The position numbers and the translations under genes are program-made. From positions 32,001 to 96,000 of the IMG/VR virus record IMGVR_UViG_3300011115_000874: DNA of 64,000 nt, one strand, 5' to 3'. The DNA is from a virus. Below, one piece after another: positions 17,115-23,524 of the stretch. Under the pieces are notes generated by a model that was given only the letters and a program-made list of their open reading frames with translations, made no database searches and was not told where the DNA came from. How positions within the stretch are numbered: position 1 is the first letter of the stretch; each line of letters opens with the position of its first letter.

Positions 17115-17160
17115 ATTTATTTTCTCCTTATTATTATGTCAAAGAACACATCCACAATTG

Positions 17161-17234
17161 TGCGCCCTCCTGGGATCGAACCAGGTACCTACTGATTATG
17201 AGTCAGTTGCTCTAACCTAATGAGCTAAGGGCGC
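17161..17234 (-). tRNA. tRNA with CAT anticodon, probably Ile2 (lysidine type)
   Basis: GCGCCCTTAGCTCATTAGGTTAGAGCAACTGACTCATAATCAGTAGGTACCTGGTTCGATCCCAGGAGGGCGCA folds as a full cloverleaf and resembles ileX-type tRNAs. Confidence 0.9.
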
Positions 17235-17240
17235 TATTTG

Positions 17241-17311
17241 AGGTCCTGAACGGAATCGAACCGCTGTATAAGCTTTTGCAGAGCTCCACCTAACCACTCG
17301 GCTACAGGACC
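17241..17311 (-). tRNA. tRNA-Cys(GCA)
   Basis: GGTCCTG/CAGGACC acceptor, GAGCT-CTGCAAA-AGCTT anticodon arm, U73 discriminator. Confidence 0.9.
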
Positions 17312-17317
17312 TTTTTG

Positions 17318-17458
17318 TACTCAAGGCAGGAGTTGAACCTGCACGGGCTGCCATTATAATGACCACATCTTGTTCAGATGATTTTTTACCCACGTTGTTA
17401 TAACCATACGTTGCGTCTACCGTCGAACAGGGCCTCCTGATCCTTTCGCCACTTGAGT
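17318..17458 (-). ncRNA. 141-nt tRNA-like RNA with expanded D and variable regions
   Basis: ACTCAAG/CTTGAGT acceptor, GCAGG-TTCAACT-CCTGC T-arm, TGGCGAAA...GGTAGACGC Leu-like D elements; non-canonical anticodon arm. Confidence 0.6.
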
Positions 17459-17511
17459 ATATGATGAATATAATATCTATATATTATAAAGCCAAACTCT
17501 TCTTGATAAAA

Positions 17512-17534
17512 AAAGCCGGGCTTAACCCGGCTTT
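17512..17534 (-). terminator. Intrinsic terminator
   Basis: aaagccggg-cttaa-cccggcttt hairpin followed by a U tract on the minus strand. Confidence 0.75.
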
Positions 17535-17557
17535 AAACGACTACTTATATTTTAGCG

Positions 17558-17845
17558 TTATAGTTGTTCGTCTGTATTAGTAGGTGGGGTATTGCCGTTA
17601 TTTGGCGTGTTATTCTTGGCTTGTTGTTTCATCTTAACAACGTTTTCTATAACAGTTAAACCTAAACCACCACCAGCAATTAACGCGATTGAATCGAACA
17701 TGAATTCGGGTGTGATGTGTTCTTCGTTCTTATAGGTAGCTATGTACGCTAGAGATATAACTACAGCTAATGCTAATAACGATGCGAAACGCTTACTTGA
17801 AGTATCTGAAGTGCCTGATAATAGGTCTTTAAGGAATTTTTTCAT
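17558..17845 (-). CDS. Two-TM membrane protein (holin-like)
   Basis: SSKRF followed by two hydrophobic helices; late motif upstream. Confidence 0.45.
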   Translation of the reverse strand: MKKFLKDLLSGTSDTSSKRFASLLALAVVISLAYIATYKNEEHITPEFMFDSIALIAGGGLGLTVIENVVKMKQQAKNNTPNNGNTPPTNTDEQL

Positions 17846-17876
17846 AGTGTGTGTTTTATGATAAATATATAGTGAT

Positions 17877-18404
17877 TTACACTAGTAATGATTTTAACTT
17901 TATAGCTAGATCAGGTAGTTTTTTAATAGATAATATCTCTGACCAAGCATTAGGGATATAACTTTTTATAACGGTTACAACCTCAGGTATTTTAGACATA
18001 TCTAAACTATATAAAATTCCAGCTATTATTAATACTGTAGCTTTTAAAATATTAGCTAATTTATTTCTTTGACCATCATCTTTCACAAATGGTTTTAACA
18101 TTAACCTAATTGGAGAGTCTAATTTAGAATCTAATTTACTTGATAAATTAATTATCCAATCTACTTTTTGTCTCATTGGATCTCCACCTTTTTTAAGACT
18201 AATTCTAGACATTAAGGCTTTTACAACTCTAGCTAAGTTATTAACAATCCCTGGTATGGCTGGTGCTATCAAAGCTATATCTCCAATTGTAACTTCATTT
18301 TGAGGTACCTGTTTAATAGCATTTAATATAGCGTCATCTACACCTGATAAATCAATATCTTCTTGTGAGTCTAGTTCTTTTAATAAATCAACTAATTTAA
18401 TCAT
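17877..18404 (-). CDS. Late protein with MIKLVDLLKE N terminus
   Basis: Shared N-terminal tag; late motif 18409-18415. Confidence 0.6.
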   Translation of the reverse strand: MIKLVDLLKELDSQEDIDLSGVDDAILNAIKQVPQNEVTIGDIALIAPAIPGIVNNLARVVKALMSRISLKKGGDPMRQKVDWIINLSSKLDSKLDSPIRLMLKPFVKDDGQRNKLANILKATVLIIAGILYSLDMSKIPEVVTVIKSYIPNAWSEILSIKKLPDLAIKLKSLLV

Positions 18405-18465
18405 AATAATAAATACAACAGAGAAAGGAGCTTTCGCTCCCTTCCCCTAATCAACCTTTAACTAA

Positions 18466-19269
18466 TTAGGCAGCAAACTCAGCTGCTAACTCATATAACT
18501 TAGCATTCAAATCTAAATCTTGTTTGAAGTTCTTAATCTTACGAGCCTTTCTAACCTTAGCTCCTGATTGGTATTCAAACATTCCTTGAGTAATTTTTTC
18601 TTGAATCACATTAAACACACTCCACAAATCAGTACCACGGTCTTCAGGTCTAGTAGCTGTAGTTAAGGCGTTATAATCAATTGCAATGTTTTGCGCTTGT
18701 TCTTCACCAAAACGTATTTGAACTGCTTTACGAGCAAACTCTAAAATTTGTTCTTGGGCCAGTTGCGTTTGTTTGAATTGATTCATTGACTCAACTGCTA
18801 ACGGTAACGCTTCTACCATTGTATTAATAACAGTTTGTAACTCTGTAAAATCATATCCGTAGTGACGAATCTTCATATTCTCAAACTCTTGAGTTGAAAT
18901 TACTAAACCATTCTCACAAATCATTCGAAACAAACCAGCAGTGAATGTAAACGCATTTTTACCATCATGACTATTAGTTAATAGAATTTGTGGAAAAACA
19001 TTATCACCATCTGCACCCTCAATGAACAAATCATTGTTACGAAACACTACTAAGTGTTTTTGAAATCCTTCACCTTTACGGGCGCGTACTTGTTTAACGT
19101 CTACTACACCCCATCCTAACTCTTCCATATCATCAATGATCTGTTTAGTTGAGATATGTGAATACTTCTGACTAGTACCTGGAGCACTTGTAGTTGTGAA
19201 AATTGAACTTGCTTTCTCTTTAATTTCAGAAGCAGTTAAAAACGTGTTGTTGTTTAAATCTAGTGGCAT
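18466..19269 (-). CDS. DUF932/DUF945-family protein
   Basis: SQKYSHIST, KHLVVFR, PQILLTNSHDG...AGLFRMICENGL, DLWSVFNVIQE. Confidence 0.8.
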   Translation of the reverse strand: MPLDLNNNTFLTASEIKEKASSIFTTTSAPGTSQKYSHISTKQIIDDMEELGWGVVDVKQVRARKGEGFQKHLVVFRNNDLFIEGADGDNVFPQILLTNSHDGKNAFTFTAGLFRMICENGLVISTQEFENMKIRHYGYDFTELQTVINTMVEALPLAVESMNQFKQTQLAQEQILEFARKAVQIRFGEEQAQNIAIDYNALTTATRPEDRGTDLWSVFNVIQEKITQGMFEYQSGAKVRKARKIKNFKQDLDLNAKLYELAAEFAA

Positions 19270-19291
19270 AACCTTTATTTATTTATTTTAT

Positions 19292-19588
19292 TTATAATTC
19301 GTTAATTAATGAACACATACGACTAATTGTGTTTCTGTATTTTTCTCTATAATCCATTCTCCATGGATCCCTATCTATATCCTGAGCTAAAAGAACTGCC
19401 TGGTCTGCATATATCTTTAACTTCTCAGATGTAGTGCCTTCAAATTCACCTTCTAAGGCGTCAATTGTAGGTACAATAAATATCTTTTGAACTGCCTTAC
19501 GGCCTCTTTTTTTAGGTTCAGCTGTGCTTACTTCTAATTTAACTTCTTGTTTTTTTGTCCCTGGTGGACGACCTCTTCTTTTTTCCAT
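19292..19588 (-). CDS. Small early protein with AT-hook-like motifs
   Basis: KRRGRPPG and KKRGRK; has its own promoter. Confidence 0.6.
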   Translation of the reverse strand: MEKRRGRPPGTKKQEVKLEVSTAEPKKRGRKAVQKIFIVPTIDALEGEFEGTTSEKLKIYADQAVLLAQDIDRDPWRMDYREKYRNTISRMCSLINEL

Positions 19589-19651
19589 AACCTTTATTTG
19601 TGTTTTTAATTATACCTAAATATAACATCCTTATCCTGGTGAGCCAAACTT

Positions 19652-19825
19652 TTAGTTGAATAGGCTAAGAATAGTAATAATGATAAAAAATATTGTAAAA
19701 TTAAAAACAAGACTACGTGAAACATTAATTACTTCTTCTTTAAATGTAGGCTTTACTTCAGCTTGTTGAGTGAGAATCATACGTGTAATCACTACTCCTA
19801 AAATCAAAATCATAATTGCGTTCAT
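19652..19825 (-). CDS. Small membrane protein, 57 aa (not in ORF track)
   Basis: MNAIMILILGVVITR...FFIITILSLFN; fills the space between two promoter copies. Confidence 0.6.
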   Translation of the reverse strand: MNAIMILILGVVITRMILTQQAEVKPTFKEEVINVSRSLVFNFTIFFIIITILSLFN

Positions 19826-19938
19826 AGTCGTTGTTATTAATTATTATTATGAACTAAATATAACATCAACTCACCAGGAAGCCAAACACTCAACCGGAAA
19901 GGTCACAAGAAAATACTAGAACGTTGAAAATTAATGGA

Positions 19939-20898
19939 TTAGACGATTTCTAGGATAACATCGTCACCTACCTCACGAATCACTGCCAAAGCATCCTGAG
20001 TCGCTACTACTATAACTGGGTAGTTATCATCATCATTCAACCCAACCATTTGCATTAAATCAGCTCCTTCAATTACTTCCTCAATTGAACCAGCTTGATC
20101 TACAACTGCGTCTAACTCAGTTACTTTAATTTTTGTAGTTGATTCATAAATACCATAATCACCTTTAGATAATGATAACCCAGATAAAGCTTGTTTAATA
20201 TCAAGTAACACTTGAGGTGGATCAGTAGATAGTATTAAGTGGTCTACCCCTATACCTTCCATCAAACTAGAATTACTTATATCCTCAGGGGTGAATGGAA
20301 CAATAATTCCTCCTACTTCACCTCCAATAAAATTACCTTGTTTTAAACCTATAGGAGCTAACTTACTAATCCATAAACTCCAACTACCTGGGTATAAGAT
20401 GTTATCTGAGAAAATTGTTTTATATGCTTCTAATAACATAGTATACATCTTAATACCCAATCCTTTACCGCGGTACTTCGGGCTAACGTACGTTAAATGT
20501 ATCTCTGCACCAGGTAGGCGATATGGTTTAGTACGCCCAGAATTCGCATTGATGTATATTTTCTCCACCTCTACTTGTCCTATAACATAATCATCTAAAG
20601 TAGTGCCTTTAGTATTTACTAAATATAAAGTACCACGGTAAGTTGAAGGTACTATAAACTCAAAGTCACCATCAGCTGTGATAACACTTTTTTTAATCAT
20701 ACGAGGATTAAATGTAGCATCAGGCTTTAGATTAAAGTCCTCAGAGTTAAACTTACCTCTACTAACAGTAAAGAACTCATCTTCAGGTATTTGAAAGTCT
20801 TCTAAGAATGCAATCAATACTTGTTCTAAAGTAATGTTATCATCTAGATCGCCACCACGTAGGTCTAATTCTTTAAGTAAGTCGGTTAATTTAATCAT
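19939..20898 (-). CDS. GNAT-like acetyltransferase-domain protein with MIKLTDLLKE N terminus
   Basis: IHLTYVSPKYRGKGLGIKMY corresponds to GNAT acetyl-CoA motif A. Confidence 0.65.
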   Translation of the reverse strand: MIKLTDLLKELDLRGGDLDDNITLEQVLIAFLEDFQIPEDEFFTVSRGKFNSEDFNLKPDATFNPRMIKKSVITADGDFEFIVPSTYRGTLYLVNTKGTTLDDYVIGQVEVEKIYINANSGRTKPYRLPGAEIHLTYVSPKYRGKGLGIKMYTMLLEAYKTIFSDNILYPGSWSLWISKLAPIGLKQGNFIGGEVGGIIVPFTPEDISNSSLMEGIGVDHLILSTDPPQVLLDIKQALSGLSLSKGDYGIYESTTKIKVTELDAVVDQAGSIEEVIEGADLMQMVGLNDDDNYPVIVVATQDALAVIREVGDDVILEIV

Positions 20899-20900
20899 AA

Positions 20901-21950
20901 TTAAAAATTCTTGCTGATTTCATCAGCTAATTGAGGTGATTTAGGAATAGTACTATGTAATGCATCAATTGGTATTACTTTTGATGACGCGTTTGTAGTT
21001 GCTTTTTTAGCGTTTTCTTCTTCTGTTTTAATTTCTTCAGGTGTTTTAGCACCTTCTTTTTTCTTAGAAGCAATTAATGATATTACTTCAACACCATTTA
21101 AGGGTCCTAATTTTTTACCTCCTGGTAATTCTCGTCCTAACCCTGCTTTCTTTTTAGTATCGTTAGTAGCGAACCATTTATAATCTATTGGATCTCCTTC
21201 TTTAAAAGTTTTACCTTTCACAGTGGGTGCTTTATTACTATATCGTTTTTCAAAATTTGTAGTATCAAATTTATCTTCTATTATCCAAGGATCTGATTGT
21301 TTAATATTAGATGCTTGTTTCTTGATTCCACTATCAGATGGAGGGAAATTACTACCAACGTATTCTATATATTTTCCTTCATTACTCTTTTTAAAACCAT
21401 CTAACTCATCATCAGTATAAAAAGTTTTAATCTTTTGTTCCTCAGTTGGTGAAAGATCACCTCCAACTCTATTCTTTACAAATACACTTAATGGTTGAGC
21501 AATTGCTACTCTAGGTTTATTACCTGCTACCATGTTATCAATAAAACTATCTGTACTATCAGCTATACCACTATCTATAAAGAATAATTTGTTATTAAAT
21601 TTCTTAGAGTCTAATGCTTTTAACTCTTTAGCTAAATGCCAAGCCATAGCACCTCCAATAGAAAAACCACCTACTCCAAATTTACTTATGTTAGGATTAC
21701 TTTCAATCTCATTAGCAATGTCTTTAGCATATTTTCTTACATCTAATTCATTAGCAAAATCAGCAGTATAAACAGAAAAATTTTTACCTAAATTATTTGC
21801 TAATGTAGTAAAATCACTTCCACCTTGACCTCCTCCAGCTCCAGAACCAGGTAAGAGTATGAGTGTGTTAGCTCCACCTTTAGATAAAGCGTAGAGTTTA
21901 GGTTTGTTTTCCTCTATTACTTCTTTTAATAAGTGGGTTAGTTTTATCAT
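20901..21950 (-). CDS. Alpha/beta-hydrolase (thioesterase-like) with MIKLTHLLKE N terminus
   Basis: LILLPGSGAG oxyanion loop, GFSIGG nucleophile elbow, FFIDS, C-terminal His (DALH). Confidence 0.65.
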   Translation of the reverse strand: MIKLTHLLKEVIEENKPKLYALSKGGANTLILLPGSGAGGGQGGSDFTTLANNLGKNFSVYTADFANELDVRKYAKDIANEIESNPNISKFGVGGFSIGGAMAWHLAKELKALDSKKFNNKLFFIDSGIADSTDSFIDNMVAGNKPRVAIAQPLSVFVKNRVGGDLSPTEEQKIKTFYTDDELDGFKKSNEGKYIEYVGSNFPPSDSGIKKQASNIKQSDPWIIEDKFDTTNFEKRYSNKAPTVKGKTFKEGDPIDYKWFATNDTKKKAGLGRELPGGKKLGPLNGVEVISLIASKKKEGAKTPEEIKTEEENAKKATTNASSKVIPIDALHSTIPKSPQLADEISKNF

Positions 21951-22026
21951 GGTTATAAATATTTAAAAAGTAAGAGAGGTCCATATGTGGACCCCATCTT
22001 ATTGCACTTTAATACGTATATACGAT

Positions 22027-22197
22027 TTATAGGCAAGCTACAATAGCATCACCAATAGCGTATATAAGGGACAGTGTTGACCATCCTAAGAAAAACCAAG
22101 ATGATTTATACCAAAATGTTTTTGGTTCATCTTTCCATACATGAATGTTAAGCGCGTGTAGGCCTGTTAGTAGTGCCCATCCAATAATTGATATCAT
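22027..22197 (-). CDS. Small two-TM protein, 56 aa (not in ORF track)
   Basis: MISIIGWALLTGLHAL...; abuts the upstream gene. Confidence 0.5.
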   Translation of the reverse strand: MISIIGWALLTGLHALNIHVWKDEPKTFWYKSSWFFLGWSTLSLIYAIGDAIVACL

Positions 22198-22198
22198 A

Positions 22199-22438
22199 TT
22201 ATTCTATTGTTAAGTTATCTTCTTGTAACATTTCTCTAATAACGTCTCTTAGACGGTAACATACATCCATTTCCTCAGATGTTGCTTCACCTTGACCTTG
22301 TAGCGCAGCTCCATACTTATGGACACTACGCAATTTTTGGTCTAGTTCCCAAATGAGATGTCTATACTTATATCCGTCTATTGCAGCACGAGCATCATTT
22401 TCTTCGTCTTCTGTAAATTCTAATATTATTTTTGCCAT
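22199..22438 (-). CDS. Hypothetical early protein
   Basis: 79 aa, promoter copy at 22451-22483. Confidence 0.6.
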   Translation of the reverse strand: MAKIILEFTEDEENDARAAIDGYKYRHLIWELDQKLRSVHKYGAALQGQGEATSEEMDVCYRLRDVIREMLQEDNLTIE

Positions 22439-22488
22439 ATGTTTTTATTTTAAATATAACATTGTTTAGCCTGAAAGCCAAACTTTAG

Positions 22489-22594
22489 TAGTCAGGACAG
22501 GAATCGAACCTGCTTCAGCTTTATCATTTTGAGTGCCATTAGCTGTTAATCTCAACCCTGGAAGGTGCCGCGCTTTCCAAAACGCCACCTGACT
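22489..22594 (-). ncRNA. 106-nt tRNA-like RNA (AGTCAGG acceptor)
   Basis: AGTCAGG/CCTGACT acceptor, GCGT-TTTGGAAA-GCGC D arm, GCAGG-TTCGATT-CCTGT T arm, long CAGCT/AGCTG extra arm. Confidence 0.6.
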
Positions 22595-22597
22595 ATA

Positions 22598-22681
22598 TTA
22601 GTTTATTAAGAATAGTAAAACGAATCCTCCTGTTCCAATAAACAATATCCAAAACAACGACCATTTTTCTTCATTTTTCAT
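22598..22681 (-). CDS. 27-aa hydrophobic peptide between the two tRNA-like RNAs
   Basis: MKNEEKWSLFWILFIGTGGFVLLFLIN with an A-rich leader. Confidence 0.4.
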   Translation of the reverse strand: MKNEEKWSLFWILFIGTGGFVLLFLIN

Positions 22682-22697
22682 AACTTTTTAATTTTAG

Positions 22698-22773
22698 TAG
22701 TCAGGACAGGATTCGAACCTGTACTCGGTGATACATTCTAGATTGCTCATTCCGATGCCAACTTTACCTGACT
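22698..22773 (-). ncRNA. 76-nt tRNA-like RNA (AGTCAGG acceptor, no canonical D arm)
   Basis: Same acceptor as 22489-22594 and an ACAGG-TTCGAAT-CCTGT T arm; the interior forms one long hairpin (TCGG...CCGA). Confidence 0.55.
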
Positions 22774-22984
22774 ATGTTACTATTAGTTCTTTAGCATTCT
22801 ACTCCCAGCTTGAGGAATTGTATCTAACTTAGCCCTACTCACGCTGTGCGGGTACTAAAGTTAACTAATAGTTGCCTTTTTGAACGACGTCGAGAAGGCT
22901 AACTCTATCTCCTATACGATGAGAACAGTTACTTGAGCTTATGTCAGAGGCTTACTGTGTTTTACGATCCCCTCGCGAGCGGGG

Positions 22985-23269
22985 CTAATTTTTATTATCA
23001 AAAACTACTCCATCTTGGTTTTCCATATAGATTCGTTTTCCATCTTTATCATATGTGGTTTTGAACCAATATCCATTATCATCTTCATGATATGTCACTT
23101 TCTCTTCAATGTGATTATGTATTAATTTTAATATCCAAGCGTTTTCGTGCTCATATACACCACATACAATACCTGCTTCTTCTTCGGTGTCATAGTATTT
23201 TATAATACCATCTTTATCCTTCATAAAATCCATAGTTCTAAGATCTATGATTACGTATTTACCTTCCAT
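22985..23269 (-). CDS. Hypothetical protein
   Basis: 94 aa ORF. Confidence 0.55.
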   Translation of the reverse strand: MEGKYVIIDLRTMDFMKDKDGIIKYYDTEEEAGIVCGVYEHENAWILKLIHNHIEEKVTYHEDDNGYWFKTTYDKDGKRIYMENQDGVVFDNKN

Positions 23270-23524
23270 AATTATCCTAATAATTTAACTATAACAGGAC
23301 ATAATAACGCTATTACCATAAATAAATAAATTGGAAATGGATCTATTGGGTAACAAGCTTCCTCCATTTCCTGGTGAAATCTTTTAATTAATTTCTTCAT
23401 AACTTTTGATTTTTAAATTATTCCATTTTGAACTAAATTTAGGATTGTAATCCCAACTATTCCACCTACAAGAAATCCTATTAAAAATGCATTAAATTGT
23501 TTTTCTTCAATCTTATTCATAATC

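Follow-up and report, generated by a model that had tools for sequence, protein, structure and literature searches.

A phage-borne family of tRNA-like, non-decoding RNAs with a tRNA-Leu-type body and highly variable inserts

Introduction

The transfer RNA (tRNA) genes of phages are usually read as helpers for codon usage or as replacements for host tRNAs that are cut by defense systems. Here we describe three RNAs of 141, 106 and 76 nucleotides (nt) from an uncultured lake phage, encoded by those three of its seven tRNA-shaped genes that cannot decode, and the family to which they belong, in which the same body is found with hundreds of different middles across uncultured phages. The three genes lie in a stretch of 64,000 nt, hereafter the window, which was taken from positions 32001-96000 of an IMG/VR virus record of 160,798 bp that has terminal repeats (IMGVR_UViG_3300011115_000874). 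With moderate confidence, and on the basis of sequence comparisons, we favor the explanation that these RNAs consist of a tRNA-Leu chassis that would be processed like a tRNA, is probably chargeable and carries a variable payload.

Among the systems described so far, the closest known case is that of the species 1 and 2 RNAs of phage T4 (RNAC/rnaC and RNAD/rnaD; NC_000866 70908-71171), small stable RNAs encoded in a phage tRNA cluster, of which rnaC (139 nt) ends in a T arm and an acceptor-like stem. The function of RNAC and RNAD is still unknown (PMC9697503). However, each of them is present in one copy, they have no tRNA-Leu D arm and do not form a family with one body and multiple inserts, and the resemblance is by analogy only. 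The closest design analogy is the engineered tRNA scaffold (Ponchon and Dardel; PMC3753655), in which an arbitrary structured RNA replaces the anticodon arm and is thereby processed and stabilized by the cell in the manner of a tRNA; this is a laboratory design, whereas the family described here would be natural and has inserts also in the D loop. The closest working analogy is provided by transfer-messenger RNA (tmRNA), which likewise combines a tRNA-like acceptor/T-arm module with a functional insert. However, tmRNA has the alanine identity G3-U70, one conserved insert, a tag frame, pseudoknots and SmpB as a partner, while the phage family is Leu-bodied, has the pair U3-A70 and short and diverse inserts, and has no tag open reading frame (ORF); the tmRNA model RF00023 gave no match on the window elements. 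In tmRNA a large functional insert takes the place of the anticodon arm, and the synthetase that charges the molecule, AlaRS, does not read the anticodon; LeuRS is also among the few synthetases with this property.

Further tRNA-like modules are known from mascRNA at the 3' end of MALAT1, plant mitochondrial t-elements and YrlA Y RNAs, where they serve processing by RNase P and RNase Z or recognition by proteins. In contrast to the phage family, these belong to other domains of life or have other architectures, and the bacterial YrlA combines an internal tRNA-like part with a Ro-binding stem; the YrlA model RF02553 gave chance-level matches on real tRNAs only. The class II tRNA-Leu (RF00005) resembles the family in the geometry of acceptor and T arm, in A73, U8, the 3-bp D stem and the GGAAUUGGUAGA D loop, in a T arm that is identical to that of metagenomic tRNA-Leu(CAA), and in its flanks and genomic setting. 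The family differs from it by the lack of a 5-bp stem with a 7-nt anticodon loop and of a consistent anticodon, by a distinct acceptor starting from A1-U72 and by middles that are mutually unrelated. The family is one of tRNA-like non-decoding RNAs, notable for its scale and for the question of charging, and no published description of it was found in full-text literature searching.

Results and Discussion

The tRNA-like elements of the window

All three RNAs are read on the minus strand, as is every ORF around them, and their coordinates and lengths were exactly those of the original prediction (Table 1). In agreement with that prediction, each has a perfect 7-bp acceptor stem starting with A1-U72, a canonical T arm composed of a 5-bp stem and a TTCRANT loop, and the discriminator A73. 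CCA is encoded in none of them, and all three have U at position -1 and C at position 74. The predicted covariation of the acceptor stems (AGTCAGG/CCTGACT versus ACTCAAG/CTTGAGT) was found to consist of two compensated pairs, G2-C71 being replaced by C2-G71 and G6-C67 by A6-U67. ARAGORN detected four ordinary tRNAs (Met, Cys, Met and Leu) in the window and in the whole genome and called none of the three elements, in line with the earlier expectation that such programs would miss them or class them as pseudo or undetermined; their anticodon arm is thus indeed non-canonical. The Rfam tRNA model (RF00005; gathering score 29) recognized the 106-nt element with 32.7 bits and the 76-nt element with 29.3 bits, in alignments that pass over the anticodon region of both by local ends. 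A 5-bp anticodon stem with a 7-nt loop, U33 and a sensible anticodon was not found in the three elements by either program, and none of their single-sequence fold z-scores was significant. The claim that the D regions differ completely had to be given up, as the 141-nt and 106-nt elements both keep a GCG/CGC D stem and GG in the loop. The lower half had also been described as free, which applies to the anticodon and variable region but is overstated for the D arm, since the latter is nearly constant across the family. The original prediction had not recognized that the body is specifically of the tRNA-Leu type, that the D arm forms part of its constant portion and that the family is very large.

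A large family in uncultured phages

A covariance model termed R1, which covers the acceptor, D arm and T arm and leaves the middle free, was made in this analysis. It scored the 106-nt, 76-nt and 141-nt elements with 66.6, 47.2 and 37.7 bits, respectively (E 2e-14 to 3e-7), well beyond what chance would give, while only one of the four ordinary tRNAs of the phage, tRNA-Leu(UAA), matched it (55.3 bits). The original prediction had proposed a covariance model of the acceptor/T-arm half; R1, which includes the D arm, also recovered a large viral family, with 274 matches (196 + 78) in 1.29 Mb of fetched loci. A 24-base 3' word of the AGUCAGG type was present in at least 120 viral contigs, often in several copies per contig, and the 3' word of the 141-nt type in 10 viral contigs. 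Extraction by these 3' words yielded 133 distinct sequences of 54-182 nt, in which the first 26 bases are nearly constant (AGUCAGG-UG-GCG-GAAU(U)GGUAGA-CGC) and the middles differ. Scanning with the 5' 25-mer alone added at least 99 further contigs, and the total amounted to at least 361 distinct members, collected from over 219 contigs of uncultured viruses. Copies recovered from previously unused contigs with the 5' 25-mer as the sole search word provided a 5'-anchored sample. In this sample the 7-bp acceptor stem and the 5-bp T stem were perfect in 87 of 95 copies and a single defect was seen in 9, and among the 96 copies scored for flanking bases A73 was present in 84 (88%) and C74 in 94, at lengths between 70 and 162 nt. 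Applied to T4, R1 gave 19 bits for rnaC on part of its length, which is below the scores of T4 tRNA-Ser and tRNA-Leu, and nothing for rnaD.

Among one genome each for 185,579 prokaryotic species, the 3' word occurred in 25 stretches only, all of them on metagenome-assembled or uncultured genome contigs and many labelled Bacteroidota. No match to a family member was obtained in 50,697 GenBank phage records, and a 5.9-kb region gave only tRNA-Met-like matches in GenBank phages. Judged from these searches, the family is phage-borne and so far known from uncultured material only. Its members are interleaved with canonical tRNAs in phage arrays, separated by a few bases, with several copies per genome.

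The arrays also contain other RNA genes. On a 62-kb viral contig (L018:1-3800, minus strand), at least eight family members are located among six canonical tRNAs in less than 4 kb, together with expanded tRNA-like genes with other acceptors (GGUCGGU, 137 nt; CCAUUCU, 105 nt). A freshwater-1 RNA (RF02979; L024:4124-4186; 70.1 bits versus a gathering score of 72) and a phage-borne tmRNA (L080:553-939; 68.8 bits) were each found in an array with family members.

A tRNA-Leu-type body that is probably leucylated

Among 102 members with a strict D arm, A14 was present in 96%, A15 in 92%, GG in 96% and U48 in 87%. Both the D arm (UGGCGGAAUUGGUAGACGC) and the T arm (GCAGGUUCGAUUCCUGU) of the family also occur in tRNA-Leu(CAA) genes of metagenome-assembled genomes to which some of the contigs with family members belong (L172 and L168); these genes read GCCCAGA-UG-GCG-GAAUUGGUAGA-CGC ... 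GCAGG-UUCGAUU-CCUGU-UCUGGGC-A and have an acceptor different from that of the family. This comparison indicates that the family body is that of a tRNA-Leu. In the explanation favored here, the genes derive from a class II tRNA-Leu and no longer decode. Charging by the LeuRS of E. coli was shown to require A73, U8:A14, A15-U48, G18G19, A20a and the contacts between D loop and T loop, and the anticodon and variable arms were dispensable (PMC9976931). The parts retained in the family are those that this enzyme needs and the varied parts are those that it ignores, suggesting that the RNAs are probably leucylated. In the window, the sequence features of the LeuRS identity set are present in the 141-nt element, together with an insert in the D loop.

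The same features would also suit an alternative that we regard as rather unlikely, namely that the RNAs are charged tRNA-Leu mimics acting by their aminoacylated end, with inserts that only tune or block entry into the ribosome. Such mimics could sequester LeuRS or EF-Tu, feed an aminoacyl-tRNA-dependent transferase or blunt a host sensor of charging. The retention of the parts required by E. coli LeuRS and the presence of A73 in 84 of the 96 5'-anchored copies are consistent with this alternative. However, it does not explain the 281 unrelated, structured and conserved inserts described below, two of the three window elements lack A14/A15 or the D stem, and the search of the phage genome yielded no gene for a transferase, a synthetase or RNA repair. 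RtcB and Ro60/TROVE (PF05731) had no match in this genome, and the search for the T4 RNA ligase family, without a match in the phage but also without one in any control genome, was uninformative. Pfam searches with ten neighboring ORFs yielded only DUF932, a weak GNAT match and a weak hydrolase match. If the chassis with its payload is indeed leucylated, the family would represent a new class of charged non-decoding RNAs.

tRNA-type flanks and processing

Flanking bases outside the search words were scored for 155 family elements and for 240 canonical tRNAs of the same loci (L008-L161). U at -1 was found in 125 family elements and in 159 canonical tRNAs, C at 74 in 151 and 239, and an encoded CCA in 4 and 16, respectively. 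The C after the discriminator in these phage tRNAs looks like a conserved 3'-processing signal, and the simplest reading of the flanks is that the tRNA maturation pathway of the host would handle family elements and canonical tRNAs alike. In such a pathway RNase P would cut the precursor between -1 and +1, trimming would take place after position 73 or 74, and a host enzyme would add CCA, as for the neighboring tRNAs. The CCA-tailed 3' end would then read ...CCUGACUACCA, where the DNA has ACUAC[A/U]A.

An alternative is that the tRNA shape might be a pure processing punctuation, recruiting RNase P and 3' enzymes to free neighboring RNAs, with inserts as mere filler. Mitochondrial tRNA punctuation and the MALAT1-mascRNA pair are examples in which a tRNA shape serves as a transcript processing signal, and RNase P needs only the minihelix of acceptor and T arm. 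In the window, an ORF of 27 codons is positioned exactly between two elements, and one of these is directly preceded at its 5' end by a conserved leader of 212 nt; together with the flanks as in real tRNAs, this arrangement would fit such a role. Nevertheless, punctuation as the sole function appears unlikely, since the tRNA-Leu D arm and U48 are conserved although a minihelix would suffice for RNase P, most copies adjoin other tRNAs that are able to do the same job, and the inserts show compensatory changes and a sequence that is conserved across different D arms. The processing signal, one of three functions considered in the original prediction, is plausible here as a side role, given the position of the ORF exactly between two elements.

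Inserts as candidate payloads

The inserts have a length of 17-146 nt, are located between D stem and T stem, sometimes inside the D loop, and are almost entirely different in each copy; the 361 members fall into 281 unrelated insert clusters, 237 of which are singletons. When compared to dinucleotide shuffles, the inserts showed a slight but significant excess of folding (mean z -0.58, p = 1e-7, n = 95). In all five insert classes examined, double-sided changes occurred in predicted pairs inside the insert, and the helices were kept by compensatory or wobble changes; in one class, an 8-bp helix begins exactly at the site expected for the start of an anticodon stem and has three pairs changed on both sides. 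Moreover, other contigs carry the insert of the 106-nt element in conserved form on four different D arms, which suggests that the insert itself is under selection; it belongs to the largest insert cluster.

It is very improbable that the elements represent decaying duplicates of tRNA-Leu (pseudogenes) or odd decoding tRNAs with introns or expansions. Such an origin could account for the 29 of 133 members that ARAGORN called as tRNAs, eight of them with Leu anticodons, and for remnants of a CUUAAG-like anticodon loop in some inserts. However, the anticodons assigned by the program are scattered, and many of them start with A34 or consist of two or four bases; the 3' halves are intact in 87 of the 95 5'-anchored copies, and the inserts show compensatory change. 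Together with the tRNA-type flanks, the intact 3' halves and the compensatory changes in insert helices bear out the earlier statement that these are not random pseudogenes. An intron or split-tRNA reading was rejected, as group I introns are much longer than these inserts and a cloverleaf was not restored by removal of any single segment. In practice, tRNA finders miss such genes or assign spurious anticodons to them, which distorts inferences on tRNAs and genetic codes of metagenomic phages.

A further alternative is that the elements act as decoys or sponges for host nucleases or toxins that target tRNAs and recognize the tRNA body. OLD, Septu, PARIS and retron effectors are examples of defenses that cut anticodon or variable arms, and OLD, according to the title of one paper, reportedly amputates the anticodon arm of tRNAs. 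Defenses of this kind cut the variable loop of the class II tRNA-Tyr and can be overcome by phage tRNAs whose variable loops are altered or whose dosage is raised (PMC13096335). The existence of tRNA-cutting defenses and the presence of multiple elements per genome would be in line with a decoy function. However, the inserts imitate no host anticodon or variable arm, and hundreds of different conserved inserts would not be needed for such a function. The decoy, which the original prediction had listed first, leaves the conserved, structured and highly diverse inserts unexplained and seems to us quite unlikely.

With 281 unrelated cargo clusters on one body, the scaffold carrying variable RNA cargo fits best among the three functions that had been considered. 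In the explanation towards which we lean, a tRNA-Leu chassis with a variable payload, the L-shaped upper body would serve as the chassis that gives precise ends, stability and recognition, and the insert would be the working payload, different in each copy. This explanation would cover the constant tRNA-Leu body, the tRNA-type flanks and the numerous inserts that are structured and conserved yet mutually unrelated, whereas each alternative leaves the diversity and conservation of the inserts unexplained. Charging with leucine would be comparable to the alanylation of tmRNA. If the inserts are payloads, the family would constitute a large unexplored pool of small phage RNAs and a natural precedent for tRNA scaffold biotechnology. 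A more far-reaching version, which we put forward only tentatively, is that freshwater Bacteroidota phages might use the leucine-tRNA body as a recombination-friendly chassis to deliver hundreds of small functional RNAs (aptamers, protein sponges or regulators) that are tRNA-processed, CCA-tailed and leucylated. If true, phage early regions with their swappable small-protein cassettes would have a combinatorial counterpart made of RNA, and this would be the second natural aminoacylated non-decoding tRNA chimera, after tmRNA.

Several observations weigh against the chassis with payload. The sets used for covariation are small and closely related, and in the class of the 141-nt element 38 of 500 shuffles reached the observed covariation score, in a small set of close sequences. 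The conservation of the inserts (91-96%) is only about that of the neighboring coding DNA (80-96%). A comparison of the inserts with Rfam at a permissive threshold, carried out for the window region and 11 loci, detected tRNA only, no convincing common motif was found among the inserts, and antisense targets of the three window inserts in the phage genome did not exceed shuffled controls. Furthermore, since the searches used exact words, the near-invariance of the acceptor sequence is partly due to the search itself. As for charging, the 106-nt element has U14 and U15 with A48, which is off the E. coli LeuRS identity set, the U15/A48 combination being possibly a swapped 15-48 pair, and the 76-nt element departs from the set by the loss of its D stem. 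Finally, a gene for a CCA-adding enzyme was not found in the phage genome, so that maturation would depend on the host.

Gain, loss and exchange of units

In comparison with the close relatives L119 and L131, the 76-nt element and the 27-codon ORF are inserted exactly at the 5' end of a chassis, and in L133 and L134 the whole island 22455-23520 is absent. The ends of the insertion fall on the chassis itself, which is the pattern expected for homologous recombination, and the repeated chassis appears from these alignments to mark the break points of unit exchange. Recombination between such repeats would allow units to be gained, lost and re-ordered. A transposon reading, for which 8-bp inverted ends (TAGTCAGG/CCTGACTA) had been considered, was rejected since there are no target duplications. 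In the tRNA region of T4-type phages, amplification is driven by the homing endonuclease SegB (PMC13096335). We read the cut motif of SegB as the reverse complement of T-loop DNA, and this enzyme is a possible analogue for the exchange proposed here; no SegB-like homing endonuclease was found near the window elements.

The individual elements and their neighbors

Table 1. Positions of the tRNA-like RNAs and of adjoining features in the window.
Feature	Position	Strand	Basis
141-nt tRNA-Leu-bodied RNA	17318..17458	-	sequence, model R1, six distinct homologs
106-nt tRNA-Leu-bodied RNA	22489..22594	-	Rfam tRNA, model R1, insert recurrence in other contigs
76-nt member	22698..22773	-	Rfam tRNA, model R1, homologs in other contexts
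Terminator hairpin and promoter-like region	17461..17534	-	sequence; arrangement kept in L128, L131-L136
tRNA-Cys(GCA) and tRNA-Met(CAU)	17160..17311	-	ARAGORN; Rfam 61.4 and 69.3 bits
27-codon hydrophobic ORF MKNEEKWSLFWILFIGTGGFVLLFLIN	22598..22681	-	sequence
212-nt gene-free leader	22774..22985	-	comparison with L119 and L131

The 106-nt element has the acceptor AGUCAGG/CCUGACU, the T arm GCAGG-UUCGAUU-CCUGU, A73 and the D arm GCG-UUUUGGAAAG-CGC. Its anticodon and variable arms are replaced by a 55-nt insert with the invariant words AAGGUUGAG, UAAC, ACUC, AUG and AAAG. Beside invariant words such as AAGGUUGAG, this insert class also contains a CACCUCC word (CACCUUCC in the window), which we take to resemble the 3' end of 16S rRNA, the anti-Shine-Dalgarno sequence. 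The word might bind to leaders of the Shine-Dalgarno type, but the resemblance could be due to chance.

The 76-nt element shares the acceptor of the 106-nt element and has A73 and the T arm ACAGG-UUCGAAU-CCUGU. It is the only one of the three in which the D stem is missing; the word AAGUUGG is kept, and the insert forms one irregular hairpin. Three other distinct homologs were found in other contexts (L113, L289 and L290, with L291 identical to L290), and the helix 23-26/39-42 changes from A.A/A-U/U.G/G.U in the window to C-G/A-U/C-G/A-U in L113. The 27-codon ORF (MKNEEKWSLFWILFIGTGGFVLLFLIN) sits exactly between the 76-nt and 106-nt RNAs, and tRNA-type processing of both flanking elements would release it as a short mRNA. 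The 212-nt leader abuts the 5' end of the 76-nt RNA in the window and that of the 106-nt RNA in L119 and L131. In these two relatives the leader is 94-96% identical, compared to 79-81% for the adjoining coding DNA, and its single-sequence fold is not significant (z = +0.35). The leader is probably a further non-coding RNA that would be released by an RNase P cut at the tRNA-like 5' end. Between the tRNA-like loci, a 319-amino-acid ORF (19939-20898, minus strand) gave a weak match to GNAT (21.9 bits, cut-off 20.7), a lead without support from PDB or NCBIfam.

The 141-nt element is a member of a sister group that has the acceptor RCUCAAG. It has the acceptor ACUCAAG/CUUGAGU, the T arm GCAGG-UUCAACU-CCUGC and A73, and its D arm has the GCG/CGC stem and a D loop that contains an inserted hairpin of 20 nt. 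At the site of the anticodon arm there is a 4-bp stem with a 12-nt loop, followed by a three-way variable region of 47 nt. The class comprises six distinct homologs, all of 141 nt except for one of 142 nt, in which 97.5% of the cells are paired and three double-sided and seven one-sided changes were counted. The element heads a tRNA operon, with tRNA-Cys (17240-17311) located 6 nt downstream and followed by tRNA-Met (17160-17234). Ahead of the element there is an intrinsic terminator hairpin with a T run (17508-17534), then a TTTGGC box (17491-17496) and an AT-rich box, whose end is separated from A1 of the RNA by a few bases. The two boxes are promoter-like and would serve the operon of the 141-nt RNA, and the arrangement is conserved in the relatives listed in Table 1. 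The tRNA-Cys(GCA) between the 141-nt element and tRNA-Met is present in the window phage only and absent from all eight relatives compared, in which the 141-nt element stands directly before tRNA-Met.

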